Notes: a model not told the origin generated them from the letters alone. 64,000 nt of DNA from an uncultured Eubacteriales bacterium (GCA_900542615.1 UQOG01000001.1:22668-86667), one strand, 5' to 3'; shown: positions 3,622-64,000, counted from the stretch's first letter. Made by a program: numbers and translations.

Positions 3622-4182
3622 ATGCGTAAAAACTTCGGGCCCAAGGCCTGGACCTATCCGCAACCGGTATTCATTGTAGCCGCCTATGGGGCGGATGGAA
3701 CCCCCAACGCCATGAACGCGGCTTGGGGCGGCATCAGCGAGGAAGCCCAACTATCCATGTGCATCAGCGCGGGGCACAAGACCACCGCCAACATCCTGGC
3801 CCGCAAGGCCTTTACCGTGAGCATGGCTACCGCAGAACAGGTGACAGCCTGCGACTATGTGGGGGTGGAATCCGGCAACCAGGCGGCCAACAAGCTGGAG
3901 AAGGCGGGCTGGCACACCACCCGGTCGGAATTTGTGGACGCGCCCCTGATCCAGGAGCTGCCCATGGCGGTGGAATGCCGGCTGGTAAGCTACGACCCGG
4001 AAACCTGCCGGATGGTGGGGGAGATCGTCAACGTAAGCGCAGACGAATCCGTGCTGGGGGCAGACGACATGATCGATCCGGAAAAATTGCAACCCATCGT
4101 CTTTGACCCCATCCACAGCGCCTATCGGAAGCTGGGGGAAAAGGTGGGCAACGCTTTCCGGGACGGGGCCCAGTTGAAATAG
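3622..4182 (+). CDS. flavin reductase-like (FMN-binding split-barrel) protein
   Basis: 186-aa ORF behind SD aaaggaggt; NAMNAAWGG motif; clear paralogue of 13813-14370. Confidence 0.8.
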   Translation: MRKNFGPKAWTYPQPVFIVAAYGADGTPNAMNAAWGGISEEAQLSMCISAGHKTTANILARKAFTVSMATAEQVTACDYVGVESGNQAANKLEKAGWHTTRSEFVDAPLIQELPMAVECRLVSYDPETCRMVGEIVNVSADESVLGADDMIDPEKLQPIVFDPIHSAYRKLGEKVGNAFRDGAQLK

Positions 4183-4361: not shown

Positions 4362-4838
4362 TTACAAATAGGCCTCCAGGATGGCGTTCAGCTGCTGCAG
4401 CTTGTCCAGCAAGGCGGTCAGGACGGCCGAACCATCGGAGAGTTCCGCCTCCACCGGCGCATAAAGGATGTAGTCGGTGCGCGCCGGCGTCTGCGAAGCC
4501 ATAAAAGGCGGCGCGCCTTCGCCCAGCTTTTCGGCCCAAGCGCATTGGGCCTTGCGGTTCACCCCGGAAAGCCATACCTCCAGCTGGAAGTCCCGGTGGA
4601 CAAAGGCGACCACGATCTTTAGCCCCGCCTCCCGCAGCCGGGGGCTGGTAAACTGGAAATAGGCATAATCCATGGCGTTTTCCGCGATACCCCCTTGGAA
4701 GGCGTAATCCGGCAACCGCTTTTCCAGCTGTACCCGCAAATAGCGAAACAACCGAACAAATTCCTGATAGGCCTTTTGCAGGTTCGTGCGCTGCAAAAGG
4801 GCCTTGTAGGATGCTAAAAGCTCCCGGTCAAAGGTCAT
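4362..4838 (-). CDS. conserved hypothetical protein (no function assigned)
   Basis: Track ORF 4362-4916; start moved to ATG 4838 (MTFDRELL...), which overlaps the stop of the upstream gene by 4 nt; good codon bias. Confidence 0.6.
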   Translation of the reverse strand: MTFDRELLASYKALLQRTNLQKAYQEFVRLFRYLRVQLEKRLPDYAFQGGIAENAMDYAYFQFTSPRLREAGLKIVVAFVHRDFQLEVWLSGVNRKAQCAWAEKLGEGAPPFMASQTPARTDYILYAPVEAELSDGSAVLTALLDKLQQLNAILEAYL

Positions 4839-5203: not shown

Positions 5204-5548
5204 TTAGCGTCCTGGTAAGCTTGGATGGACAGAGGAACACGACAGCATGATCATAGCAATCATGTTGTCCATGTTCCTGAAACCATAGGCTCTACGGATA
5301 ATCAGCTTAATCTTGTTGTTGGTAGCCTCGATACGAGCGTTAGAAAGCCCATGGGTCGCCGCCGCAACGATAGCCTTGAAGTGCCGCTTAATCTTGAGAC
5401 GGAGTTCACGGAAGGCAGGGATTCTGCACCGTTGCGCCCATCCCATCCACTTGGTCAAGGCCTCTGAGATTTCATCCGAACCCGCCTTGAGGGCCAGCCT
5501 CAGACCTTCCTTCAGCAGGTAGGCACGATAGAGCCGGGGGTTGGCTTT
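5204..5548 (-). mobile_element. ISL3-family transposase, C-terminal fragment only
   Basis: ..NPRLYRAYLLKEGLR...SNARIEATNNKIKLIIRRAYGFRNMDN.. is the characteristic ISL3 transposase C-terminus. The upstream part of the track ORF (to 5734) has no transposase character. Confidence 0.75.
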
Positions 5549-5567
5549 CGTCCCGACTGCACATTTC

Positions 5568-5597
5568 TTGACATTTCCACCATTACTATGGTAAAAT
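5568..5597 (+). promoter_or_regulatory. sigma-70-type promoter (TTGACA, extended -10 TGgTAAAAT)
   Basis: TTGACA 5568-5573, 18-nt spacer, TAAAAT 5592-5597 preceded by TG; about 100 nt upstream of the YgjV-like gene. Confidence 0.5.
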
Positions 5598-5697
5598 ATA
5601 ATTCCAAAATTTGTGTGGATTTTTCTGGAACATCGCATCCATTTTTCGCCACGCGCCCTTGCTGGGTGTGTGGCTTTTTTCATGGGAGGACAGACGA

Positions 5698-6201
5698 ATG
5701 AATGTGCTTTATCAGCTGATCGGCTTTGGTGCAATAATTACTATGGGACTCAGCTACTGGCAGAAGGACAAGCGCATGATCTTGCTGTGGCAGGTAGTTG
5801 CCAATTTGATTTTTGCCATCCATTATGCACTACTTCACGCCCAGTCTGGTGCAGTATGTAGCTTTTTTCAAATTATTGTGTTGATACTTTTCCTATTACA
5901 GGAGCGGTTTCGTTGGAACAAGGTCGCCACGGCGATGCCTATCGCAGCGGTGTTCCTGCTGATTGCTGTGTTAACCTACGAAACGCCAGTGACGCTGCTA
6001 CCTATTTTGGCATCGTTGGTGGCCCTGCTGCCCTTCTTCCAGTCCAACAAGCGGGTGATACAGGGCGCGGGCATTGTCAGCGGCCTTTCGTGGCTGGTGT
6101 ATGTCATTGTAGTGCGTTCCTATTCCGGCATGGTGACGGAGTCCGTGCTGACGGTGATCACGGCGGCGTCCCTGCTGAAAAAGGAACCGAAAAAAAGCTA
6201 A
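5698..6201 (+). CDS. YgjV-family inner-membrane protein
   Basis: Start ATG 5698 after SD gggagga; five or six hydrophobic helices; MNVLYQLIGFGA...SYWQKDK N-terminus typical of YgjV-like proteins. Confidence 0.65.
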   Translation: MNVLYQLIGFGAIITMGLSYWQKDKRMILLWQVVANLIFAIHYALLHAQSGAVCSFFQIIVLILFLLQERFRWNKVATAMPIAAVFLLIAVLTYETPVTLLPILASLVALLPFFQSNKRVIQGAGIVSGLSWLVYVIVVRSYSGMVTESVLTVITAASLLKKEPKKS

Positions 6202-49691: not shown

Positions 49692-50531
49692 ATGACCAAA
49701 GTCATCGCCATCGCCCATGAAAAAGGGGGCGTAGGCAAAACCACTACCACCATCAACCTAGGCATCGGCTTGGCCCGGCAAGGAAAAAACGTCTTGCTCT
49801 TGGACGCCGATCCCCAGGGCGATCTGACCAAATGCCTTGGCGTGAAAGAACCCAAGGCTCTGCGCCATACCATCGCCTCCTGTATGGATTATCTCATCGC
49901 CCATGGCGAGGAGGACTATCTTCCCGATTTTGTTTACGCCGACGCCATCCGGCAGCATGACGAAGGCGTGGATTTCATCCCCGCCAACGCCAGCCTTGCG
50001 GCCACGGAGGTGACCCTGGTAAACAGCATAAGCCGGGAAACCGTTCTGCGGCAGTATCTGAACGTTGTAAAGCAGCAATATGATTACGTCCTCATCGACT
50101 GCCGCCCCTCCCTTGGCCTTACGGTCATCAATGCCTTGACCGCCGCCGACAGCGTGATCATCCCGGTACAAGCCCATATCTTGGCCGCACAGGATATGGA
50201 CGCCCTGTTCAAAACCATCGGCCGGGTACGGCGGCAGCTGAATCCGCACCTACAGGTGGACGGTATCTGCATGACCATGGTAGATGCCCGTACCAATCTG
50301 GCCCGGACTACCGCAAAGTCCATTCGGGAGAACTACGGCTCCCTGGTACGGGTGTTTCAAAGCGAGATCCCCTTTGCCATCCGGGCGGCCGAGGTGCCGG
50401 AGAAAGGCCAGAGCATCTATGCCTACGACCCCAACGGGCGGGTGGCAAAAGCATATGAAGCATTGACCAAGGAGGTGATGGCGCTTGGAAACCGGGAATA
50501 CGAAAAAGCCCAGGATTACCACGCTAGATGA
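49692..50531 (+). CDS. parA: ParA-family partition ATPase
   Basis: SD aaaggagga; deviant Walker A HEKGGVGKTTTT; DADPQGDLT. Confidence 0.9.
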   Translation: MTKVIAIAHEKGGVGKTTTTINLGIGLARQGKNVLLLDADPQGDLTKCLGVKEPKALRHTIASCMDYLIAHGEEDYLPDFVYADAIRQHDEGVDFIPANASLAATEVTLVNSISRETVLRQYLNVVKQQYDYVLIDCRPSLGLTVINALTAADSVIIPVQAHILAAQDMDALFKTIGRVRRQLNPHLQVDGICMTMVDARTNLARTTAKSIRENYGSLVRVFQSEIPFAIRAAEVPEKGQSIYAYDPNGRVAKAYEALTKEVMALGNREYEKAQDYHAR

Positions 50532-51444
50532 CCTGTTCGGCATCCCCTCAGCCCCGGATGCCGGCGGGGCGCAAATACAGCAGATCGAATTGCGTAAGCT
50601 TCACGAATTTGAGGGGCATCCCTTCAAGGTGTTGGAGGATCAGGCCCTGTTGGACATGGCGAAAAGCATCCAGGAAATCGGCCAGCTTACCCCTGCCATT
50701 GCAAGGCCATTGGAGGATAGGCCCGGCGAATATGAATTGGTCTCCGGCAACCGCCGGCATCGGGCCTGCCTGCTGGCGGGCCTTACCCATATGCGGGTGA
50801 TCGTCAAGGAAATGACCCGGGATGAAGCCATCATCCAGATGGTGGACGCCAATTTGCAAAGGGAACACATCCTGCCCAGCGAACGGGCTATGGCATATAA
50901 AATGAAGCTGGAAGCGATACGAAGGAGGGCCGGAAGACCTACTAAAGAAAATTCGGGCCAAGTTGGCCCGAATTTTGATAATCGCCGTTCTAACGCCATT
51001 GTTGCAGAACAGGCTGGCGAAAGCATTAAGCAAGTGCAGCGCTTCATCCGCCTAACCGCCCTCATCCCGCCCCTTTTGGACATGGTGGACAATCGAAAAA
51101 TCGCCTTCAATCCAGCCGTGGAATTGTCCTATCTATCCGAGCAACAGCAATACGACCTTTGCGAAGCCATGGAGCTGTACGACTGCACCCCTTCCCTATC
51201 CCAGTCCCAGCGGCTCAAGGAGGCCGCGCGGGCCGGGAAGCTGGATAAAAACGGCATGGAGTTGGTCATGCAGGAGGAAAAGCCCAACCAAAAGGAGGTG
51301 GTCAAATTGTCCAGAGAGCGGCTGAACAAATATTTTCCCCCGGACATGCCGCCCCAGAAGATCGAAGAAACCATTGTGAAAGCCCTGGACCTGTACTACA
51401 AGCGGCTGGAACGGCATAGGCAGGAGCAGGAATACACGAGATAG
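50485..51444 (+). CDS. parB: ParB/Srx-domain partition/nuclease-like protein
   Basis: TTG 50485, 7 nt after ggaggtg, overlapping the parA 3' end; ParB-N motifs HPFKV and VSGNRRHRA. Confidence 0.85.
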   Translation: METGNTKKPRITTLDDLFGIPSAPDAGGAQIQQIELRKLHEFEGHPFKVLEDQALLDMAKSIQEIGQLTPAIARPLEDRPGEYELVSGNRRHRACLLAGLTHMRVIVKEMTRDEAIIQMVDANLQREHILPSERAMAYKMKLEAIRRRAGRPTKENSGQVGPNFDNRRSNAIVAEQAGESIKQVQRFIRLTALIPPLLDMVDNRKIAFNPAVELSYLSEQQQYDLCEAMELYDCTPSLSQSQRLKEAARAGKLDKNGMELVMQEEKPNQKEVVKLSRERLNKYFPPDMPPQKIEETIVKALDLYYKRLERHRQEQEYTR

Positions 51445-52305: not shown

Positions 52306-52463
52306 CCCGCGCCAAGGGGGACGTATGCCCTTTATTCCTTCCCAACGGTCGATGTGACTTCCCCCTTCCCCCGTAACCCCTAACCCTTGATTACCAGCCG
52401 AGAAAAACAAATACCAGCCGGAAAACGAAAAACTTCACGTCCAAGCAAGCCTTGGAGGTGTTT

Positions 52464-52514
52464 AGGGGCCGCCATCCTGACCCAAGCCCAGGATCAGCGG
52501 CCCTGTTTTTGTTT
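52464..52514 (+). terminator. strong hairpin + T-run in the adhesin leader
   Basis: aggggccgccatcctg...caggatcagcggccct followed by gtttttgttt; ends about 17 nt before the adhesin SD. Confidence 0.6.
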
Positions 52515-52544
52515 CCGGCAGGTAAAAAGCAAAGGAGAAGCAAC

Positions 52545-55500
52545 ATGCAACGATATCGGAAAATCGTTTGTCTGGCGTTGGCCGTTCTCATGCTGCTGGG
52601 CCTTATGTCCCCGGCATTGGCGGCCAGCACGGTTATTACCAACCAGGACAACAGCTATGACTACTTCGAGTACTATGGCTCCAACGGCGAATGGAACGAT
52701 CTGAACACCCCCTATCACTACGATAGCGCAGGCAACCTCGCCTACTGTATCGAGCACAAGAAGGACCCCCCTTCCTCCGGGGGCACCAGCTATTCGGATT
52801 TCGATCCCTCCGCCATCTTCTCAGGTTCCACCATCACCGGCATCCAGGCCATCCTGGATCATGGTTACCCGGTCTCTTCCGGCGGGTTAAGCAGTGCCGA
52901 AGCGCACTACGCCACCGCCAACGCCTTGCGGGCCTGGATCTACGAGAGCGCAGGCCAGGGCTATAACTTCATGGACGTAAGCCGGGGCTATGTCCGGGCC
53001 AAGGAGGGCGCGGAACAAGTGTGGAATCTATTCATGCGCCTGCTTGCCTACGGCCGCAGCGGGCAGACCACCGGCGGGGGGAGCGGCGGCGGGGAAATCA
53101 TCGTATCCGCCCCTAACTTCCGGCTCACCTGGCAGCTGGTGGACGGCCGGCTCCAAACCAGCCTCACCGTCCAGGCTCCCAACGGATATACCATCCAGCC
53201 CAGCCACAGCGACGTAACCATCCAGGGCTATACCGGCGGCACGCATGATGAATTGACCATCACCGCCCCCGTAAGCCTGGGGGGCACGGACGTTTCCTTG
53301 TTCATCCAGGGCAAGGGCGGGTCAACGGGCAAAAGCGCCCTGCTGTACTGGTATGAACCGGAATCCTCCAGCAGCAGGCAGCGGGTCGTTGCGGTGGAGA
53401 TGGCCGCAGGCGGTGCGCCGGATAGCGGCTATGTGTACATCACCGGCGGGTTTTTCGACCTGACGGTAAGAAAGACGGACAATTATACCAACGCGGCCCT
53501 GGATGGCGCGGTGTTCCAGCTTTCCCAGGGCGGCAACCCCATCTGCCTTACCGAGACCGGCCCAGGGCAATATACCCCCGGCGGCAGCGCCAACACCTTT
53601 ACCACCAGCGGCGGCAGGGCATATATCAGCGGCCTGCCCGGGGGCAGCTATACCTTGACCGAGGTCTCCCCGCCCCATGGGGGATATGTGGGCATGCGCC
53701 CCACCAACATAGATTTGACGGGGAACGGCACGGTGGACATAGAAAACGCACCCACCCAGGTAAACGTGGTAAAGACCAACGGCTTGACCCAAGCGCCCAT
53801 GCCTGGCGTGACCTTTACGCTCACGAATGAACAGGGCGAGCCGGTGCTCCTTTCCAAACACCAGGACGGCACCTACCGGCCGGACAGCGAAGGCGCGGAC
53901 GGATTCACCGTGGACGCGGACGGCAAAGCCACCATCCTCTATCTGCCGGCGGGTACATATACCATCCACGAACCCAATGCCGAAGGATTCGCCCAATTGG
54001 GCAGCGATACCTTCACCCTTTCCGAGATCACCAACATCCAGGCGGTGAACGAACCCCTTTGCATGATCGTAACCAAGGTGGACAGCTTCACCGGGGAATC
54101 CCTCCCGGGCGTCCCCTTCACCCTGCTGGATGAAGCCGGCAAGGCGCTGCAATTCACCAAGCAGGCGGATGGTGTTTATCACTACGACCCGGCGGGCACG
54201 GCAGGCTTTGAGACCGGCGCGGAGGGTACCGCCACCCTCTACTATGTTCCCGCAGGCGCCTATACCTTGCGGGAAACGGGGGACATGGGCTTAGGATATG
54301 CGAAGCCCCAGGATGTTTCCATCACCATTACAAGGGAAAACGGCGTGCGCAACCCGCTGGCGGTGCGCTTCCAGAACAACCCGACCACCCTGGAATTCAC
54401 CAAAGCGGACGCGGTCACCAAAGAACCGCTGGATGGCGGCGTCTTCCGGCTGCTGGACGAAGGCGGCGAGGCGGTTCTGCTCAAGGAGCTGGAGCCGGGC
54501 AGCTACCGGCCGGACGAGGAGGGGCAGAGCACCTTCACCACCCAGGATGGCGAAGCGGTATTCCGGTACTTACCGCCCCAGGCATATACCATTGAGGAGG
54601 TGGAAGCGCCTGCGGGGTATACCAAGGATACCCCCAAATCCGTAACCGTCACGGCGCAAAACGATGTATCAAACGCAGCAAAGCTCAGTATGCAGGACTA
54701 CGCCCTGACCCTAACCTTCGATAAAACGGACGGGCTGACGGACAAACCCCTGGACGGCTGTACCTTCGTCCTCAAGGACAGCGAAGGGGAGACCGTGCCC
54801 TTAATCAAAGTAAAAAACGGCGTATATAAGCCGGATGCAGATGGGGAGGCCGCCTTCACCACCTATGAAGGCAGCGCATCCATCACCCAGATCCAGCCGG
54901 GCCAATATACCATCTGCGAAGAGACCCCGGCGGAGGGTTACACCAAGGCGGCGGATATCGCCGTTACGGTTTCCCAAACCCACATCGCCGCCAGCCCCGC
55001 CGCTGCCGGCATGAAAAACGGGGTCACCGCCATTTCGCTAAACAAGGTAGACGCACAAAGCGGCAGCCCTATCGGCGGGGCGGTGTTCCGGCTGTTGGAC
55101 GAGGCAGGCGAACCGGTAACGCTCTCCACCATAGCGGGCAAGCCTGGCTGGATGCGGCCGGACCGGGGCGGCAGCGAAACCTTTACCATCCCGGAAACCG
55201 GCCTGACCCTTGCCTACCTGCCCCGGGGGGAATATGAATTGGCGGAGGCAAGCCCCGCCCCCGGCTATGCGCCGCCAGCAGAAAACGTTTCCCTATCCGT
55301 GACGGACAGCACCACAACGGCAGCCCCCGGCGAAGCCACGCTGTCCAACGAGCCGCTGGCCGTAGAGGTGACGAAAACCGACGCCTTAAACGGAGCCCCG
55401 CTTCCCGGCGTACAGTTCAAGGTGCTGGATGAAACCGGCGAAGCGCTGCTGTTTACAAAAACAGCGGAGGGGGTATACCGGGTGGATCCGGACGGCGCAG

Positions 55501-57224
55501 CCCTGTTTCAAACCGGGCCGGATGGCAAGGCAATGCTGCTTGCTGTTCCTGCAGGGGACTATACCCTGGTGGAAACAGGGAATGCCGGCTTTGGCAAGGT
55601 GGAGCCGGTGCCCTTTACGGTAACGAATGCGAATACCCACGAGACGCCCGTGGCAATCGGCGTAGAAAACCAGCCTCTTGCTTTGGAAGTCTATAAGGTG
55701 GATAAAGAGAGCCAGGTCCCCCTTGGAGGGGTCCCCTTTAAGCTATTCAATGGCGAGGGTGCGCCTCTTTGCTTTGCGCTAGGCGACGACGGTATCTATC
55801 GGGTTTCCGCAGAGGGGGATGCAATTTTTCTGACGGACGATATGGGCAAGGCAACGTTGCTGTATGTACCAGAGGGCATACTTACGCTGGAGGAGCAGCC
55901 CCATTCCGGATATGGTGTAGCCTCCCCGGTGAGCGTTACCATCTCCGAGGAAAATATCCTGGCGCTGCCCAAGGCTGTGACCGTAGAGAATGAACCTCTT
56001 GCGGTGGAGATCTATAAGGAGGATGCTTTTACCGGAGCGCCCATGGCCGCCTCCTTTACGCTGCTGGACGGGACGGGCAAGACCATACCGCTGGCCCGCA
56101 TGTCGGATGGCGCTTACCGCCCGGCGGATACGGTATCGGAGGCCGCAAAGGCCGAGGAAAGGGCGGAAGCAGACGGAACCCAGGCTGCGCCCACCCTTGT
56201 AGAAAAGGTAAACGCCTTGACCCTGGACGCCAAGACCGGCAAGGCCCGCATCGAGTATCTTACGGAGGGCACTTATCAGCTGGTGGAGGACCCGGTTTCT
56301 GGCTATATGGCCCTGTCCGGGATTGAATTCACCTTGCAGAACCAGCACACCAAGACCTTGCCCCTGCAATGCACCGTGTCCAATCTCCCTACCCGTTTCT
56401 TGCTGGAAAAGCAGGATGGGGCAACCAAGCAGCCCCTACAAAGCGCCAAATTCAAGCTGACGGATGAAAATGGGAAGGCGATAAAGCTGATGCAGCAGGA
56501 AGATGGCACCTACCGGCCTGCCCAGGAAGGGGAAACCGGCATTGAGATTTTGGAGCTTACCAATGAGAATGCCCAGGCCATAATCTGTTATTTACCTGCC
56601 GGGAAGGTGACGGTAACAGAGGTGGAAGGGCCCGTTGGCTACAGTATAGCCCCGCCCATCACCACGGAGGTGGGAACGGAAATTGTACTGCATACCGCCG
56701 TCCAGGCGCAAAAGGAAGATGCAACGGCACCTCCTCTCGCGGAAACTTCCCTGGCGGTGGTGGACTTACCCCTTGCGTTGAAGATCAGCAAGGTACACAG
56801 CAAGACGCACAAGCCCCTTCCCGGAGCAGGCTTCCAGCTGAAATCGGAGTCCGCTCTTTCCACGCCGCTGACCTTCACCCTGCGGGACGGCGTCTATTGG
56901 TATGACCCAGATGGCAGCGTCACCACCATAGAGGCGGCTGGGGATACCTGCGAAGCCCTTCTATACGGCCTCCCTGTCGGGAAATACCAGCTGGAGGAGA
57001 CCGTGGTTCCCGAGCATTTCTTCCCTGCGCCCCCGGTGGCGGTGGAGATCACCCTGGAAACCACCAGCGAAACCCCAAGGGAAGTGGTGGTCACCAACAC
57101 CCCCCAGGTGAAGCTGGGCATTGACGCCGATAAATTCAACGTGGTGATCGCCATGGCCCTGACCCTGCTCATTGGCGGCGGCGTGGGAATTGCTGTTCTG
57201 GTGCGGTATAGAAGGAAGCGGTAA
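52545..57224 (+). CDS. giant surface adhesin: N-terminal adhesin/thioester-like domain + many SpaA/Cna-B (prealbumin-fold) repeats + C-terminal TM anchor
   Basis: ATG 52545 after aaaggaga; signal peptide ..SPALAAS; N-domain with AYCIEHKKDPP. At least 12 divergent repeats of the pattern F.L.DE.G..........G.Y....G...F.T...G.A....LP.G.YT..E..AP.GY. C-terminus is a hydrophobic helix + RYRRKR with no recognisable LPXTG. Confidence 0.82.
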   Translation: MQRYRKIVCLALAVLMLLGLMSPALAASTVITNQDNSYDYFEYYGSNGEWNDLNTPYHYDSAGNLAYCIEHKKDPPSSGGTSYSDFDPSAIFSGSTITGIQAILDHGYPVSSGGLSSAEAHYATANALRAWIYESAGQGYNFMDVSRGYVRAKEGAEQVWNLFMRLLAYGRSGQTTGGGSGGGEIIVSAPNFRLTWQLVDGRLQTSLTVQAPNGYTIQPSHSDVTIQGYTGGTHDELTITAPVSLGGTDVSLFIQGKGGSTGKSALLYWYEPESSSSRQRVVAVEMAAGGAPDSGYVYITGGFFDLTVRKTDNYTNAALDGAVFQLSQGGNPICLTETGPGQYTPGGSANTFTTSGGRAYISGLPGGSYTLTEVSPPHGGYVGMRPTNIDLTGNGTVDIENAPTQVNVVKTNGLTQAPMPGVTFTLTNEQGEPVLLSKHQDGTYRPDSEGADGFTVDADGKATILYLPAGTYTIHEPNAEGFAQLGSDTFTLSEITNIQAVNEPLCMIVTKVDSFTGESLPGVPFTLLDEAGKALQFTKQADGVYHYDPAGTAGFETGAEGTATLYYVPAGAYTLRETGDMGLGYAKPQDVSITITRENGVRNPLAVRFQNNPTTLEFTKADAVTKEPLDGGVFRLLDEGGEAVLLKELEPGSYRPDEEGQSTFTTQDGEAVFRYLPPQAYTIEEVEAPAGYTKDTPKSVTVTAQNDVSNAAKLSMQDYALTLTFDKTDGLTDKPLDGCTFVLKDSEGETVPLIKVKNGVYKPDADGEAAFTTYEGSASITQIQPGQYTICEETPAEGYTKAADIAVTVSQTHIAASPAAAGMKNGVTAISLNKVDAQSGSPIGGAVFRLLDEAGEPVTLSTIAGKPGWMRPDRGGSETFTIPETGLTLAYLPRGEYELAEASPAPGYAPPAENVSLSVTDSTTTAAPGEATLSNEPLAVEVTKTDALNGAPLPGVQFKVLDETGEALLFTKTAEGVYRVDPDGAALFQTGPDGKAMLLAVPAGDYTLVETGNAGFGKVEPVPFTVTNANTHETPVAIGVENQPLALEVYKVDKESQVPLGGVPFKLFNGEGAPLCFALGDDGIYRVSAEGDAIFLTDDMGKATLLYVPEGILTLEEQPHSGYGVASPVSVTISEENILALPKAVTVENEPLAVEIYKEDAFTGAPMAASFTLLDGTGKTIPLARMSDGAYRPADTVSEAAKAEERAEADGTQAAPTLVEKVNALTLDAKTGKARIEYLTEGTYQLVEDPVSGYMALSGIEFTLQNQHTKTLPLQCTVSNLPTRFLLEKQDGATKQPLQSAKFKLTDENGKAIKLMQQEDGTYRPAQEGETGIEILELTNENAQAIICYLPAGKVTVTEVEGPVGYSIAPPITTEVGTEIVLHTAVQAQKEDATAPPLAETSLAVVDLPLALKISKVHSKTHKPLPGAGFQLKSESALSTPLTFTLRDGVYWYDPDGSVTTIEAAGDTCEALLYGLPVGKYQLEETVVPEHFFPAPPVAVEITLETTSETPREVVVTNTPQVKLGIDADKFNVVIAMALTLLIGGGVGIAVLVRYRRKR

Positions 57225-58987: not shown

Positions 58988-61255
58988 ATGGATCAATTAG
59001 ACAGACGCACAAAATTGCTGATCGTGGGCGGGGTTTGCCTGCTGCTGGTGATCGGGATCATCGTGCTGGCAGTATCCTGCAATGCAGCCCGGCAAAAGGA
59101 GCCGGAACCCACGCCTGTGGTAGATATTAACCCAATACCGGAAAGCACGCCTGCGCCAACCCAAAGCCTTGCCCCCACCGTTACACCCAGCCCTACGCCG
59201 GAGGCGGTAGCGGCTCCGGCGCTTCCCACAGCCTCCCCTGCCCCCACGCCGGAAGCAGCTGCGCCCACAGCTAAACCCGCCGTGACAACCCCGAAGCTGC
59301 CAAACAGCAGCAGTGGGTCAAACACCGCGGCTACAAACAGCACCAAGCCCAACAGCACCGCCCCTTCGGAGCAAACCAAAGCGCCTGCCACCCCTGTATT
59401 CGACTTCGGCCTGCCCGCCGCAGCCAGCGTGGGGGCCCAGGTGGTGGTGAATCCAGCCTCCCGCAATGTGACCCAGGTAAGCTGGACCGTTGGCAAGACC
59501 GGGCTTTTCGGCATCCCCACCGGCGGGACTTATCAGGGAACCCTAAACGCCAACGGCGGCAGCATTGTCTTTGACGCCCCGGGAACCTATACCCTCACCG
59601 CCACGGCAAAGAGCAGCGCCGGGGAAACCGTCACCGTATCCCAGGATATTGAGATCCTGCCGGTGGGAAAATTCGGCTTTGGCCTGCCCAAGACCGCTTA
59701 CACGGATACCGTGGTAGATGTGGAAGTGCTGGGCGGTATAGAGGGCAGCGTCACATGGCGCGTTCAGAAGGATGGTCAAGAAATGCCCCTTGCGGAAGCC
59801 TTTGCCGGAACGCTGACGGACACAGGCGGTTTTATCACCTTCCGGGAGGAAGGAATCTACACCCTGACAGGCCAAATCGACGGCGGGAAATCCTATGGGG
59901 CGGATATCGCCGTATATCCCCTTATGGAAATCCCCTTCACCGTGCCTGCCACCACCTACCGGAATACCGAAATATCGGTGGAAATGGGCGAAGCCGATCT
60001 CCAGGGACAATCCATCCAATGGAGCGTGAAGCAGAATGGCAGGGATGCGGAATACGCCGGAACTCTAACGGATGCAGGCGGCTCGATCTCCTTTGCCAGC
60101 CTGGGGGACTATCAGATCACCGCCAGCGCAGCGGATACCTATACCGGCCGGGTATTTTCCCAAACCAGGCAGATCCGGGTTGTCAACCGGCGGCCCAATG
60201 CGCCAGAGGGTACAGCCGTCGTTACCGCGCAGCGCAGCAACGGCAAGGTGCTGGTGGAATTTGCAGCCACGGCCACCGACCCGGACAGGGATGAAGTGAC
60301 GCTGGAATGGATGGGCCGGGGAGATGATTACTTCGGCGTGGGCGTTCATACCGTTCGCGTCCGGGCCCGGGACAGCGTGGGCGACGATTCTGCCTGGACG
60401 CCCGTAGCCTTTGAGGTGCCCAACGCGCCCCCGGACGCCCCCGTAGGCACTGCCACCATTCACCGGGATCAGGTGGCAAACCGAAAAGCCTTTGTCACCT
60501 TTACGGCCACCGCCACCGACCCGGACAACGATCCGGTGACATATGAATGGGATGGCCGGACGGCAGATGATTATTATCCCCTTGGCAGCCATACCGTCCG
60601 GGTTCGGGCCAGGGATAGCTTCGGCGCATACAGCCCCTGGACACAGGTGCCTTTTACCATCTCCAACCAGCCCCCAGAACGGCCTACCATCCTTCGCACG
60701 CCTTCCGCGCCCTTCATCCTACCGGGGAATACCGTCACCATCACCGCCAACGCCCTTGACCCAGATGGGGATGCGGTGGAATACGTTTGGGAAAACCGGC
60801 CCAGTGAAACCTACGCCTATCCCGAGGGTAGGCAAATCGTAAAGGTATATGCGGTAGATGCATTCGGCGCGCAAAGCCCGGCCAAGCGCATCATGTTCCT
60901 CATGGGCGATCCCAACCGGGCGGGCAACCTAATGCTCACCGGGCCGGACAGCAGCCTGTTTGAGCCGGGCATTGAGGATGCCACCCTCATTTACTATAAA
61001 TTTGTAGTGCCGCCCGTATCCGGCCATTATGGCCAGGACTTTGGCCGGGTGCGAGGATACAACCGCTTGACGGGGCAATGGGATCAGCTGGACTATGGAA
61101 CCACCAGCAACGGCATCTCCTTTGAACGAAACCTGGAGGCGGGGGTGTATACAAAGCTAGACCTGTATTACTATACCAATCACGATTGCATGTATAACAA
61201 GAGCAACATCACCTACATCGCCCTCTTCGAGTTTGACGAGCTGGAGGAGGAATGA
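58988..61255 (+). CDS. membrane-anchored surface protein with P/T/A-rich stalk, Ig-like region, three PKD-like repeats and a C-terminal beta-rich domain
   Basis: N-terminal TM (LLIVGGVCLLLVIGIIVLAV); low-complexity stalk. Three repeats contain A(T/N)A(T/L)DPD.D.V.YEW...... and HTV.VRARDS.G..S.W. Confidence 0.65.
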   Translation: MDQLDRRTKLLIVGGVCLLLVIGIIVLAVSCNAARQKEPEPTPVVDINPIPESTPAPTQSLAPTVTPSPTPEAVAAPALPTASPAPTPEAAAPTAKPAVTTPKLPNSSSGSNTAATNSTKPNSTAPSEQTKAPATPVFDFGLPAAASVGAQVVVNPASRNVTQVSWTVGKTGLFGIPTGGTYQGTLNANGGSIVFDAPGTYTLTATAKSSAGETVTVSQDIEILPVGKFGFGLPKTAYTDTVVDVEVLGGIEGSVTWRVQKDGQEMPLAEAFAGTLTDTGGFITFREEGIYTLTGQIDGGKSYGADIAVYPLMEIPFTVPATTYRNTEISVEMGEADLQGQSIQWSVKQNGRDAEYAGTLTDAGGSISFASLGDYQITASAADTYTGRVFSQTRQIRVVNRRPNAPEGTAVVTAQRSNGKVLVEFAATATDPDRDEVTLEWMGRGDDYFGVGVHTVRVRARDSVGDDSAWTPVAFEVPNAPPDAPVGTATIHRDQVANRKAFVTFTATATDPDNDPVTYEWDGRTADDYYPLGSHTVRVRARDSFGAYSPWTQVPFTISNQPPERPTILRTPSAPFILPGNTVTITANALDPDGDAVEYVWENRPSETYAYPEGRQIVKVYAVDAFGAQSPAKRIMFLMGDPNRAGNLMLTGPDSSLFEPGIEDATLIYYKFVVPPVSGHYGQDFGRVRGYNRLTGQWDQLDYGTTSNGISFERNLEAGVYTKLDLYYYTNHDCMYNKSNITYIALFEFDELEEE

Positions 61256-61314
61256 CGCACCGGGGAAAGGGCGCTGTGCCGCCCTTTCCTCTAACCAGAA
61301 AACAGGAGAAACAT

Positions 61315-61854
61315 ATGCAAATCAATCAAGGATACAGAATTATAGAGCGCTTCCCCATAGGGGGAAAGGGCTTTGGTCTGGGGTATAATCCGGACGCCCC
61401 CAATCCATATGTGACATGGCAATATCGGGCAGATGACCCAGAGCATTATTTCTGGGGGCATTATTACAATGAAAAAGAAGCGGCGTATCAAGACTATCTG
61501 GATCGCATTGAGCAGGAAGCAGAACAATACCAAACCATAACGGGCAGTCCCTTCCCGCTCCCCAAGCTGTGCCTTACCATCCAGCCCAGCACCGGCGATA
61601 TAGTAAATATCACCCGTGGGATCAAAGGCTATTATCCCTCCGACTGGAACCAACCGGGGAACAGAACGTATAATCGTGAAGCCGCCGAAAATGCAAATCA
61701 GCAGCTGGGCGTAACCAAGGCGCAGGAAGCTGCCATGCTGGCAGGCAGTATGTTTGGCTGGGATTGTCCGGCAGCGCATCCGCAGCTATATGACGCCCAG
61801 GGGAAATTGCGCGTTCCCAATGGAAAAGAGCACCCACAGGAAAGGGGGCGCTGA
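61315..61854 (+). CDS. conserved conjugative-element hypothetical protein
   Basis: ATG 61315 after acaggaga; ..AAMLAGSMFGW.. motif; no function assigned. Confidence 0.6.
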   Translation: MQINQGYRIIERFPIGGKGFGLGYNPDAPNPYVTWQYRADDPEHYFWGHYYNEKEAAYQDYLDRIEQEAEQYQTITGSPFPLPKLCLTIQPSTGDIVNITRGIKGYYPSDWNQPGNRTYNREAAENANQQLGVTKAQEAAMLAGSMFGWDCPAAHPQLYDAQGKLRVPNGKEHPQERGR

Positions 61855-61930
61855 TGGATAAAAGATCGTTTCTGCGGCCAGGGAACGGCGTATGGATGTT
61901 GCGCGACGAGATAAACAGTAGGAGGCCCAA

Positions 61931-64000
61931 ATGACCAGGAAAGCAAACGCCATATCCACATTGGCCCGGGAGACCATGGCGCGGATCGTGGGCAGCCCGG
62001 CAGAATGGGAATCGTTCCTTCGATCCGCCGCGCGGATGTACAAATACGCCTTCCCAGAACAGGTTCTCATCTATGCCCAGCGCCCAAACGCCACCGCCTG
62101 CGCCACGCTGGAGCAGTGGAACCGGTGCCGCTACCGCCGCTGGGTCAAGCCGGGGGCCGTGGGCATCGCCCTCCTGGAGGATACAGGCCCGCAGCTTGGG
62201 CTGAAATATGTATTCGACCTTTCCGATACCCGGCAAACCCCATACAGCCAGCCCTTTTTCACCTGGGCATACCGGCCGGAATATGAAGAAGCGGTGCTGG
62301 AGAGCCTGGAAAACCACTTTGGCGAAGTGGAGGGGACAGGGTTTTCGCGCCGGCTCCATGCCATCGTCGGGAACCTGGTGGAAGATAACGCGGCGGAATA
62401 CGCCGCAGCCCTCCAGGGGATTGCAGCGGACAGCCACCTGGGGGATACCGATCCGCCGGTTCTCTTGGAGCTGCTAAAGCTGGCCGCAGCTCCCAGCGTG
62501 GAATATATGATCCTTTGCCGTCTGGGCCTTCCCGCAGCGCCTATCGGGGAAGGGGACATGCAGGCGGTTACCTTATTTAATACGCAGGAAACAGCCGCCC
62601 AACTGGGCGCGGTTGTAAGCGATATAGCAAAGATGGCCCTTGGCCAGATCGAGCGGACGGTGAAGTCCATAGAAAAAGAGGCCGGCACATTTGCAAAATC
62701 CGAACGGGTAACGGAAAATGAACTGGAAGAAGAAATCAAAAGGAGTGTGGGATATGGAACTGACATACCGGCAGGAGGCCAATTACCGGATTCCCGACTT
62801 GACGTTGGAACAGGAGCAGGAAGCGCCGGGCAAGTACGGGATGCTGCGCAAGCGGTACCTGAAGGAGCACCGGAAGGGGACATACGCAGGGTTATTGCTG
62901 AACGGGACGCTGCAAGCCCATCTCTTGGAGGTGGATCGGGCAGTCCGGGCCCAGGTGGAACAGACCATGCAGGAGCTGGCCAAGGCCGAGGGGGTGCGCG
63001 AGGAACAGAAAGCCCAAGACCCGCTGGCATGGACCGCCCGGATGAACAACATCCGCCAGCGGGCCGAGGAGCTGGCCATGGAGCTGATCTACAGCTAGAA
63101 GAAACCAATGAAAGGCCGGAGGCTTTGAAAAGCCCCGGCCTTTCTCTTTCCGCCCTGGCAGGGGTAGAGGAACAGATGGCCAACATCCTGGCAGCGGAGC
63201 ACCCCGGCCCCTTTGCCATCCATCAAGGGGAGATCGATCATGTGCTGCGCCGGGGCAGCGGATTCCAAAATGGCAAGCTCCGCATTTTCCTATACTACCA
63301 GCAAACGCATCCCTTGCAGGAGCGGGCTGCGTTTCTTAAAAAGGAATACGGCATAGGGGGCGGCTCCCACGTCTTTACCAATGGCCGAAAGGGGAATATC
63401 TGGTACGACGGCAAGGGCCTATGCATCAGCCAGGACAGCGGCAGCGCCTTTTCCAACCCGGATTGGCGCATATCCTGGCGCAAGGCCGCCCAGCGGATCG
63501 GGGAACTGATCGCCCAGGGCCAATATCTGACGGAAGGGGAACAGGCCCAGCTTGCGCAATATCAGGAGGCGCAACCCATAGACCGGCCCCAAACTTCACT
63601 GGAAACCATGGTCCTTGCGCAGGAGGAGCGCAGCCGTCAGCCGGGAGAATACCGGCTTTCCTTGGGGGATACGGTATTCCTCCATGGGCAGGCGCACGTC
63701 ATTCTTTCCATGGCGGGGGAGCTGGTAGAACTGACGGACCCTCAATATCCTCTCTTAACCGTGTCCTATCCGCAGGAACAGTTTATTCGCCTGGTGGGGC
63801 AGGACAAGCGAAATGACCGCCTGCTTGCGCCGGAACAGCGAAATGACCTCGGCATTCGTCCCGACGCCCTTTCTCCAGAACAGGTTTCCCCGGCTTTAGA
63901 CGGCCCGGCGCCGGATTCCAAGCAGAAACGCACCCCGAAAACAACGGCCGCGCGGAATTTTGATAGGCTCATGGCCCTTGCGCCCGAGCTTCTCACCGGG
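61931..64000 (+). CDS. large conjugative-element ORF (ArdC-N-like N-terminus, low-complexity linker, polyvalent-protein-like continuation); 3' end outside window
   Basis: Not in the supplied track because it has no stop in the window. I translated it by hand: ATG 61931, 5 nt after aggagg, then 690 sense codons to position 64000. N-terminus ..YKYAFPEQVLIYAQRPNATACATLEQWN..WVKPGAVGIALL.. resembles ArdC/DUF1738-type ssDNA-binding domains (tentative). Whether it is one protein or several cistrons is unresolved (see findings). Confidence 0.55.
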   Translation, partial: MTRKANAISTLARETMARIVGSPAEWESFLRSAARMYKYAFPEQVLIYAQRPNATACATLEQWNRCRYRRWVKPGAVGIALLEDTGPQLGLKYVFDLSDTRQTPYSQPFFTWAYRPEYEEAVLESLENHFGEVEGTGFSRRLHAIVGNLVEDNAAEYAAALQGIAADSHLGDTDPPVLLELLKLAAAPSVEYMILCRLGLPAAPIGEGDMQAVTLFNTQETAAQLGAVVSDIAKMALGQIERTVKSIEKEAGTFAKSERVTENELEEEIKRSVGYGTDIPAGGQLPDSRLDVGTGAGSAGQVRDAAQAVPEGAPEGDIRRVIAERDAASPSLGGGSGSPGPGGTDHAGAGQGRGGARGTESPRPAGMDRPDEQHPPAGRGAGHGADLQLEETNERPEALKSPGLSLSALAGVEEQMANILAAEHPGPFAIHQGEIDHVLRRGSGFQNGKLRIFLYYQQTHPLQERAAFLKKEYGIGGGSHVFTNGRKGNIWYDGKGLCISQDSGSAFSNPDWRISWRKAAQRIGELIAQGQYLTEGEQAQLAQYQEAQPIDRPQTSLETMVLAQEERSRQPGEYRLSLGDTVFLHGQAHVILSMAGELVELTDPQYPLLTVSYPQEQFIRLVGQDKRNDRLLAPEQRNDLGIRPDALSPEQVSPALDGPAPDSKQKRTPKTTAARNFDRLMALAPELLTG
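62754..63098 (+). CDS. tnpV: TnpV-family protein, nested in the +1 frame of ORF 61931->
   Basis: ATG 62754, 6 nt after aaggag (62742-62747); MELTYRQE.NYRIPDLTL...YGMLRKRYLKEHR...AWTARMNNIRQRAEE...ELIYS is the TnpV signature; G/C-rich third positions in this frame. Confidence 0.8.
   Translation: MELTYRQEANYRIPDLTLEQEQEAPGKYGMLRKRYLKEHRKGTYAGLLLNGTLQAHLLEVDRAVRAQVEQTMQELAKAEGVREEQKAQDPLAWTARMNNIRQRAEELAMELIYS
63110..63150 (+). terminator. hairpin + T-rich tail immediately after tnpV stop (inside ORF 61931->)
   Basis: gaaaggccgg (63110-63119) pairs with ccggcctttc (63135-63144), with an inner stem ggcttt/aaagcc, then tctctttcc. Confidence 0.5.

Follow-up and report, generated by a model that had tools for sequence, protein, structure and literature searches.

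Introduction

Same-strand genes that lie wholly in the +1 frame of another gene and carry their own Shine-Dalgarno (SD) sequence are known from phages, where Rz1 is embedded in Rz of phage lambda and, in phiX174, B in A and E in D. In Bacillus subtilis, comS, which encodes 46 amino acids (aa) and occurs in a narrow group, lies out of frame inside srfAB, where it overlaps an enzymatic domain. To our knowledge, well-supported long nested genes are rare in bacteria. Here we describe a nested pair in a 64,000-nucleotide (nt) stretch of DNA from an uncultured Eubacteriales bacterium (GCA_900542615.1, UQOG01000001.1:22668-86667), referred to below as the window. A complete tnpV gene lies in the +1 frame of a giant open reading frame (ORF), whose own frame we call frame 0 and whose predicted product is of the polyvalent type found on conjugative elements.

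Terminators and attenuators occur in Gram-positive conjugative elements upstream of tet(M) in Tn916 and as IRS1 of pCF10. Polyvalent proteins are giant multi-domain proteins of Firmicutes conjugative elements, assembled from ArdC-N, YodL, methylase-helicase and LPD modules (PMC5512222), and the words TnpV, overlapping and frameshift are absent from the paper that describes them. TnpV itself is postulated to be excisionase-like from its likeness to lambda Xis (PMC3158075). We found no published description of a nested tnpV among titles and abstracts on TnpV, which show no overlap and which come from a literature set with most subscription journals outside its coverage.

The locus resembles each of these systems in part. 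Like comS in srfAB, it places a small protein in an alternative frame of the same strand inside a very large multi-domain ORF, with an internal start. Unlike comS, it encodes a protein of 114 aa that is predicted to be folded and belongs to a widespread family, it overlaps a linker predicted to be disordered, it occurs in many Bacillota genera, and it is followed by a terminator-like hairpin of its own. It shares with Rz1/Rz and the phiX174 pairs the full embedding of a same-strand +1 gene with its own SD; in those compact phage genomes both products are sequence-constrained, whereas here one of the two readings is apparently only kept open. As in Tn4451/Tn4453 and in stand-alone tnpV genes, the product is a full-length member of PF14198, and stand-alone copies have its layout of SD, ORF and terminator. 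Stand-alone genes, however, have 1-23 stops in the frame that is open around the nested copy and no host N-terminal domain upstream. The hairpin and its T-run could, like the Tn916 and pCF10 attenuators, set read-through into downstream element genes, but those attenuators lie between genes or in leaders, and this hairpin lies within a continuous ORF and encodes part of it. Finally, homologues of the host protein carry SNF2, ResIII, Helicase_C, LPD16, LPD25, N6_Mtase and Eco57I domains, as polyvalent proteins do, and differ from the published ones by the gene nested inside a linker (PMC5512222).

Results

A complete tnpV gene lies inside a giant ORF

The window sequence contains two intact same-strand ORFs in different frames, one within the other. 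Their signals and products are listed here; structure predictions are AlphaFold2 (AF2) models, scored by predicted local distance difference test (pLDDT).

61920..61925, + strand: SD of the giant ORF, AGGAGG, 5 nt before ATG 61931, by direct reading of the sequence
61931..64000, + strand: giant frame-0 ORF for a polyvalent-type protein, 690 codons visible, cut at the window end
61931..62689, + strand: folded N-terminal domain (N-domain), residues 1-253, pLDDT 80-95, possibly ArdC-N-like
62737..62745, + strand: internal SD of tnpV, CAAAAGGAG, 8 nt before ATG 62754
62744..63163, + strand: frame-0 linker, residues 272-411, low-complexity and predicted disordered, pLDDT 28-40
62754..63098, + strand: tnpV, 114 codons plus TAG (63096-63098), in the +1 frame and wholly inside the giant ORF
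63110..63151, + strand: terminator-like hairpin (63110-63144) and T-rich tail (63145-63151, TCTTTCC), 12 nt past the tnpV stop
63218..63580, + strand: next folded domain, residues ~430-550, with the motif GSGF..GK.RI...FLKKEYGIGG, pLDDT 75-90

An earlier annotation of this DNA made without database searches, here called the sequence-only reading, held that the frame opening at ATG 61931 behind a good SD never closes. Frame 0 has 0 stops from this ATG through 64000, against 20 and 16 in the other two plus-strand frames; the closest upstream frame-0 stop is at 61919, and the SD is the AGGAGG listed above. The full TnpV-family protein that it placed at 62754-63098 is likewise present, and matches Pfam TnpV (PF14198) with an E value of 5.5e-32 and 110.5 bits, where the cut-off is 27. 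Residues 4-109 align to positions 1-107 of the 111 in the profile. A search with this protein found 764 TnpV homologues, with PF14198 in all 120 among the matches listed, and the AF2 model (pLDDT 88.4) consists of a beta-hairpin and helices.

The aaggag expected upstream of tnpV exists, at 62740-62745 rather than at 62742-62747 as first given. Its consensus among relatives is GAAAGGAG, which frame 0 translates as E-R-S in relatives and, from the window's own version, as K-R-S. An SD of the GAAAGGAG type, with an in-frame ATG a few nt on, is found in nearly all of ~70 distinct loci, and SD and ATG are identical among close relatives. Codon usage changes frame where tnpV begins and ends, as the sequence-only reading had noticed: G+C at third codon positions (GC3) in frame 0 is 0.56-0.86 before ~62700, 0.34-0.38 in segments across 62741-63071 and 0.66-0.82 after 63100, while the tnpV frame stands at 0.80-0.86 inside the overlap.

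The host ORF can be followed past the window through its 114 database homologues. P0247, a cluster representative with 96% identity to the window protein, is 2577 aa long. Relatives at 94-98% identity contain DUF6908, N6_Mtase and Eco57I domains, and more distant full-length homologues contain SNF2, ResIII, Helicase_C and LPD16; across homologues of 2000-2971 aa the set comprises SNF2, ResIII, Helicase_C, LPD16, LPD25, methylase, MutS_I and DUF3849. Through these homologues the giant protein answers to the description of polyvalent proteins as very large, with several unrelated effector domains. By the same architecture, the host protein is predicted to be one that belongs to the polyvalent proteins of conjugative elements.

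For the N-domain, the top fold match of the model in the PDB (Foldseek) is ArdC of R388, 6sna, with an E value of 0.05-0.07, a probability of 0.91-0.97 and a TM score of 0.37-0.43 on the target. Pfam ArdcN matches 1 of the 28 homologues examined (P0102, E 1.1e-8), and Pfam, NCBIfam and PDB sequence profiles give no ArdC-N match for the window protein. The ArdC-like identity first suggested for this domain thus holds as a weak fold match and one homologue's Pfam match, from which the N-domain may be ArdC-N-like, and not as a match of the window protein itself. The domain that follows the linker is conserved by tblastn and lies in frame 0 in 80 loci. It corresponds to phrog_38613, a PHROG of unknown function, and has no Pfam match; we take it to resemble the YodL-type domain of Iyer et al., an assignment for which Pfam likewise gave no match.

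Close relatives have lost modules of the host protein with the frame unbroken. In L091, and apparently also in P0016, an in-frame deletion of 597 nt (window 63164-63760) removes the post-linker domain; L089 has an in-frame deletion of 291 nt inside the N-domain (window 61982-62272); and L089 and L091 have a 6-nt in-frame insertion just before the hairpin. On the minus strand, an antisense ORF of 362 codons (window 62131-63219) runs across the N-domain end, tnpV and the hairpin, and we suspect it to be a by-product of G+C-rich coding sequence on the opposite strand.

Both frames are conserved across divergent loci

We scanned one genome per species, which gave ~600 matching stretches, and analysed the best 80. 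These loci come from Clostridia and other Bacillota, at 28-40% identity and with a G+C content of 0.26-0.64. Cultivable hosts with such a locus are [Clostridium] asparagiforme DSM 15981 (L037), Roseburia inulinivorans DSM 16841 (L040), Agathobaculum butyriciproducens DSM 100391 (L039) and Schaedlerella arabinosiphila DSM 106076 (L018). Each of the 80 has a full-length TnpV homologue (tblastn E 1e-16 to 1e-37), placed +1 to the frame of the N-domain. In 79, frame 0 runs on through tnpV, either over 2000-2971 codons or as far as the contig reaches, and these 79 have the next conserved domain back in frame 0. Every embedded copy examined, both in 81 loci and in a set of 108 distinct embedded sequences, has frame 0 open across tnpV, and counting stops per frame in hosts of low G+C content, a check that the sequence-only reading had proposed, found it open down to 26% G+C.

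Phase is conserved as strictly as openness. Between the N-domain start and tnpV, 26 distinct spacings occur, all equal to 1 modulo 3; between the tnpV stop and the next domain there are 39, all in phase. This many spacings, all in phase, imply many insertions and deletions of which every survivor kept both frames. Homologues at 27-37% identity have the N-domain, linker and following domain in one polypeptide. A search without a word index returned 3011 cluster representatives at E <= 1e-3 and 555 at E <= 1e-30, and nearly all of the top 150 align unbroken to the linker end. A +1-frame TnpV is also found in two more distant genes, P0102 and P0044 (E 5.5e-37 and 3e-48), the first being the sole homologue with a direct Pfam ArdcN match and the second lying directly after type-IV-secretion genes.

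Both frames of the nested pair are therefore conserved, and the arrangement is not a stop-loss accident. Of the two explanations put forward in the sequence-only reading, this supports the first, a tnpV overprinted in an inter-domain linker, with frames and phase kept in divergent loci.

Two database proteins that had been considered as examples of a separate N-domain gene, P0341 and P0387, were set aside: one lies on L178, a 1.1-kb contig that ends just past the gene, and the other in L179, which has a 1-nt frameshift. P0112, a candidate natural fusion of N-domain and TnpV, was set aside as well. It is known from one metagenome contig, where a 1-nt shift falls ~15 codons into tnpV, and we read it as a mutation or sequencing error because its other frame retains the canonical SD, an ATG and the TnpV N-terminus.

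Stand-alone tnpV genes serve as a natural control

To estimate how often frame 0 would be open by chance, the tnpV of each locus was recoded synonymously with local codon usage and frame-0 stops were counted. The window tnpV is expected to hold 3.0 stops, and frame 0 stays open in 2.4% of its synonymous shuffles. The openness thus exceeds chance, as the sequence-only reading had supposed, although the window's open frame, taken alone, is only moderately surprising. Across loci, the shuffles predict 2.4-11 frame-0 stops per locus, and 0 were seen in the 79 loci tested; the probability of an open frame 0 is <= 0.01 in most loci and < 1/2000 in A+T-rich ones.

A second sample was anchored on TnpV itself instead of the host protein. 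It contains 28 embedded copies, plus 1 with a shorter downstream ORF, with 0 frame-0 stops, and the N-domain lies upstream of the embedded copies, in phase, wherever the contig extends that far. By contrast, 46 stand-alone copies have 1-23 stops in the matching frame and no N-domain. Five partial IMG/VR matches (L145, L149, L150, L159 and L166; query residues 29-114), which show no stops in either alternative frame over their short stretch, were left unclassed. When 139 TnpV sequences were placed in a neighbour-joining tree, the nearest neighbour belonged to the same class for 137 of them; ~4 switches of state suffice.

The two classes also differ in how they use synonymous codons. A frame-0 stop requires a T-ending tnpV codon before a codon that begins with AA, AG or GA. 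Of the 3755 codon pairs of this kind in embedded copies, 0 have a T-ending codon, compared with 12.7% in harmless contexts; for stand-alone copies the two values are 15.6% and 23.8%. The synonymous constraint that had been anticipated for tnpV therefore takes the form of absent T-ending codons before AA, AG and GA, while the overall rate of synonymous substitution (dS) in tnpV is not lowered.

The stand-alone tnpV of plasmid pSGG1 (L083 2989-3339) has 3 stops in the frame that is open in the window. It lies upstream of tet(O/W/32/O) and beside IS1216, with a terminator directly after it. Further stand-alone copies are found on plasmids of Campylobacter, Enterococcus, Streptococcus, Salmonella and Klebsiella, which indicates that tnpV travels with resistance cassettes far outside Clostridia.

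Selection acts on TnpV and not on the linker peptide

Selection was analysed in ten close relatives from gut metagenomes at 74-99% nucleotide identity. Within the overlap, the ratio of nonsynonymous to synonymous substitution rates (dN/dS) is 0.12-0.20 in the tnpV frame, for relatives of 85-99% identity, and 1.3-2.5 in frame 0; in the flanks of the giant ORF on either side of the overlap it is 0.15-0.45. Variable sites are concentrated at frame-0 position 3 in the flanks and at frame-0 position 1, which is tnpV position 3, in the overlap. This pattern indicates that TnpV is under ordinary protein-level selection and that the frame-0 peptide is free to vary if it stays free of stops. Constraint on frame 0 within the overlap is seen as stop avoidance and phase only.

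The linker is the out-of-frame reading of the tnpV cassette, set between two confidently folded domains, and it is, as had been described, a low-complexity sequence. In the lineage of the window it includes ..DAAQAVPEGAPEGDIR... The sequence-only reading held that similar linker strings occur in database entries, and GQVR.., DEQHP..G.G and DLQL do recur, in homologues at 27-37% identity; the shared motifs are GQ[IV]R, DEQHP..GGG and DLQL. These motifs reproduce, out of frame, the TnpV C-terminus (W..RMNNIR..AEE...ELIY) and the ribosome-binding site. Because the frame-0 peptide is unconstrained and predicted to be disordered, the linker need only stay open and in phase.

Compared with L086, the window has a dS of 0.50 in the N-domain and 0.145 in tnpV; compared with L087, the values are 0.115 and 0.476. 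This mosaic suggests recombination breakpoints around the tnpV cassette.

A conserved hairpin follows tnpV within the ORF

The strong hairpin reported after tnpV is borne out by folding: the segment 63096-63160 has a folding energy of -27.9 kcal/mol, with a z score of -3.2 against dinucleotide shuffles. Recoding the frame-0 peptide synonymously gives less stable folds (p 0.004), and the hairpin is invariant in nine relatives of 85-99% nucleotide identity. Many relatives have textbook terminator forms such as GCGGAGGACGAAAAATCCTCCGCTTTTTCTATT. Terminator-like hairpins follow 93 of 108 embedded tnpV genes, at a median of 57 nt past the stop (0.16 expected from shuffles), and 34 of 40 stand-alone genes, at a median of 9 nt (0.33 expected from shuffles).

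In most embedded copies the canonical hairpin also encodes a frame-0 motif, AE.EK..SAFSISQ. Stability was therefore measured in a protein-anchored segment with synonymous recodings as the null. The hairpin beats its recodings at p <= 0.05 in 39 of 64 loci (median z -2.1), and control segments of the same ORFs have a median z of -0.13. In an alignment of 40 hairpin sequences, paired cells make up 90.5%, where shuffles give 82.4% and none of them (0/500) reaches 90.5%; sliding the 3' partner by 1-3 columns leaves 36-68% paired. Cells changed on both sides number 45, where 14.7 are expected, and one pair formed by two third-codon positions is GC in 22 sequences, AU in 16, GU in 2 and unpaired in 0 of the 40. 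The hairpin structure is thus conserved, supported by covariation of wobble position with wobble position. With SD, ORF, stop and hairpin all conserved, the whole cassette is maintained inside a continuous ORF.

The lineage of the window does not have the canonical hairpin. There, the peptide encoded by 63176-63230 is AAEHPGPFAIHQ, with no stem, and the hairpin at 63110-63144 sits 60 nt upstream of the canonical place; the structure looks replaced rather than lost. An Rfam search of 61000-64000 gave no family match beyond one at chance level on the minus strand, to Virus_CITE_1 at 62194-62259 (24.5 bits, gathering score 80, E 0.068).

Genomic setting and annotation

Upstream of the giant ORF, the window contains the following genes:

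49692-50531: ParA
50485-51444: ParB-like protein
52452-57224: SpaA-repeat surface protein, 1590 aa
58988-61255: PKD/Ig-like surface protein, 755 aa
61252-61854: 200-aa ORF with no family match

No type-IV-secretion or transfer genes were identified within the window. In one homologous locus, L177, the gene stands directly after PrgI-, TraG-P-loop- and NlpC/P60-type genes. The genes upstream in the window would be compatible with an accessory end in a Gram-positive conjugative element.

Existing annotation records the two genes unevenly. On the Cohnella herbarum plasmid NZ_CP051681.1 (L081 5115-11375) and on the Monoglobus pectinilyticus plasmid NZ_OY725736.1 (L082 5307-11888), TnpV is annotated and the surrounding ORFs, of 2086 and 2193 aa, are unlisted in the PLSDB gene table, which omits pseudogenes. 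What stands over the N-domain in the L081 record is an antisense 'hypothetical protein' (5439-6002). Metagenome gene callers mostly report just one gene of this pair, and annotation pipelines may systematically miss these giant genes.

Discussion

We consider a nested, overprinted pair of same-strand genes on a conjugative element very probably the right explanation of this locus. Ribosomes starting at ATG 61931 would make the giant polyvalent protein, running from the N-domain through the linker and a further domain to methylase and helicase modules past the window. The linker of ~140 residues would be the frame-0 reading of the complete tnpV cassette. Other ribosomes, entering at the internal GAAAGGAG-type SD and ATG 62754, would make the 114-aa TnpV. 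Selection would act on the amino acids of TnpV, and on the host frame just for the lack of stops and for phase, which would make the linker peptide a disordered passenger whose conserved motifs shadow TnpV. The hairpin probably ends a share of transcripts past tnpV, which would give different amounts of TnpV and of the giant protein. With moderate confidence, we expect that this partial termination would raise TnpV relative to the giant protein, at the cost of frame-0 ribosomes stalled on transcripts that have no stop codon.

Several observations weigh against this explanation. That both proteins are made from one DNA is inferred, with high confidence, from evolutionary signatures alone. The loci share ancestry, so that 80 loci are not 80 independent trials, a concern reduced by the many insertions and deletions, the range of G+C content and the stand-alone controls. 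A few copies are damaged: L007, the exception among the 80 loci, meets a stop at N-domain codon 26 (6001-6079); in L095 (~3990-4010) a 1-nt frameshift fuses the N-domain to TnpV, giving database protein P0112; and in L179 (~4600-4716) the 1-nt frameshift makes the N-domain end early and leaves the linker frame open. All of these could reflect sequencing errors or recent decay. The TnpV model has no fold match in the PDB, and its PHROG family is of unknown function. A consensus terminator scan did not list the window hairpin, presumably because of its bulged stem and a weakly T-rich tail with 4 T in 8. Finally, a terminator inside an ORF yields stop-less transcripts, an awkward outcome for frame-0 ribosomes that the nested pair leaves unexplained.

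Transcription might instead end almost completely after tnpV, so that the fusion of N-domain and linker is finished rarely or never; TnpV and a separate downstream protein would be the real products, and frame 0 would be held open for another purpose, such as retaining ribosomes on the mRNA. A linker peptide with no sequence constraint of its own and a conserved, covarying hairpin of terminator type inside the ORF would both suit such an arrangement, which we nevertheless think highly unlikely. The downstream domain is always in the phase of the N-domain over its 39 spacings, which is unexplained unless the same ribosomes read both domains, and no conserved start codon or SD precedes it.

We find it just as hard to credit that the giant protein is the only product and the tnpV frame the untranslated remnant of a gene once captured. 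At medium G+C, 10-60% of recodings that keep the frame-0 peptide leave the tnpV frame open by chance, so that its openness is in itself weak evidence there; in loci of 26-28% G+C the corresponding probability is < 0.001. The dN/dS of tnpV speaks of ongoing protein-level selection, which is not seen in frame 0. SD, ATG and the position of the stop are conserved, and full-length profile matches tie the protein to a family with stand-alone members.

Programmed +1 frameshifting near the internal SD, giving a functional fusion of N-domain and TnpV, deserves still less credence. Strong internal SD sequences can in principle stimulate frameshifting, as in prfB and dnaX, and P0112 does join the two parts in one frame. 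Visual inspection of the aligned start regions, which did not extend to a formal scan, brought out no evident slippery sequence common to the loci, nor any rare codon or stop of frame 0 at a constant spacing from the SD, and frameshifting would leave the open frame 0 unexplained.

The second explanation of the sequence-only reading, which divides the region into an N-domain gene that lost its stop, tnpV and a polyvalent gene starting near ATG 63176 (first placed at 63175), with openness owed to high G+C, can be dismissed almost outright: an open frame is not far-fetched in a single copy at 57% G+C with a tnpV GC3 of 0.80-0.86 (P 0.024), a weak GAGG precedes the in-frame ATG, and N-domain-only proteins such as P0341 and P0387 exist in databases, but frame and phase are kept in 79 of 80 loci, including those at 26% G+C where > 9 stops are expected, and over all 26 upstream and 39 downstream spacings, Met 416, which this ATG encodes, is not conserved among relatives, and frame-0 stops are not routine upstream of or within tnpV.

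The origin of the nested pair may lie in a stand-alone cassette of SD, tnpV and terminator that came to stand between an N-domain gene and a downstream gene. Reading through this cassette in its -1 frame would then have fused the neighbours. We regard read-through fusion as the simplest history because stand-alone copies share the cassette layout and the host-frame reading is disordered and unconstrained; the reverse, tnpV escaping from a linker, is the alternative.

A more speculative extension, to which we give a modest chance, is that the cassette serves as a built-in expression switch. Most transcripts would end past tnpV, yielding TnpV and a stop-less N-domain product that is degraded, and production of the polyvalent protein at full length would require that termination be overridden, perhaps by TnpV itself or by ribosomes following closely. 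Were this so, the output of an anti-restriction or establishment factor would be tied to the state of the element.

The nested gene is 345 nt long and conserved across hosts of 26-64% G+C, in a family of at least several hundred protein clusters. With stand-alone tnpV as a natural control, it offers a clean system for studying how a folded protein and a merely open frame share DNA. It suggests that a complete cassette of SD, ORF, stop and terminator can serve as an inter-domain linker, and the conserved linker motifs of these giant proteins are explained as shadows of TnpV. Fusing genes by read-through of an entire gene that lies between them, in the alternative frame of that gene, would be an undescribed route to multi-domain proteins. 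The locus also points to a possible annotation problem for giant ORFs around tnpV. Such elements abound in the Clostridia of the human gut, which makes the locus relevant to how a conjugative element becomes established in a new host.

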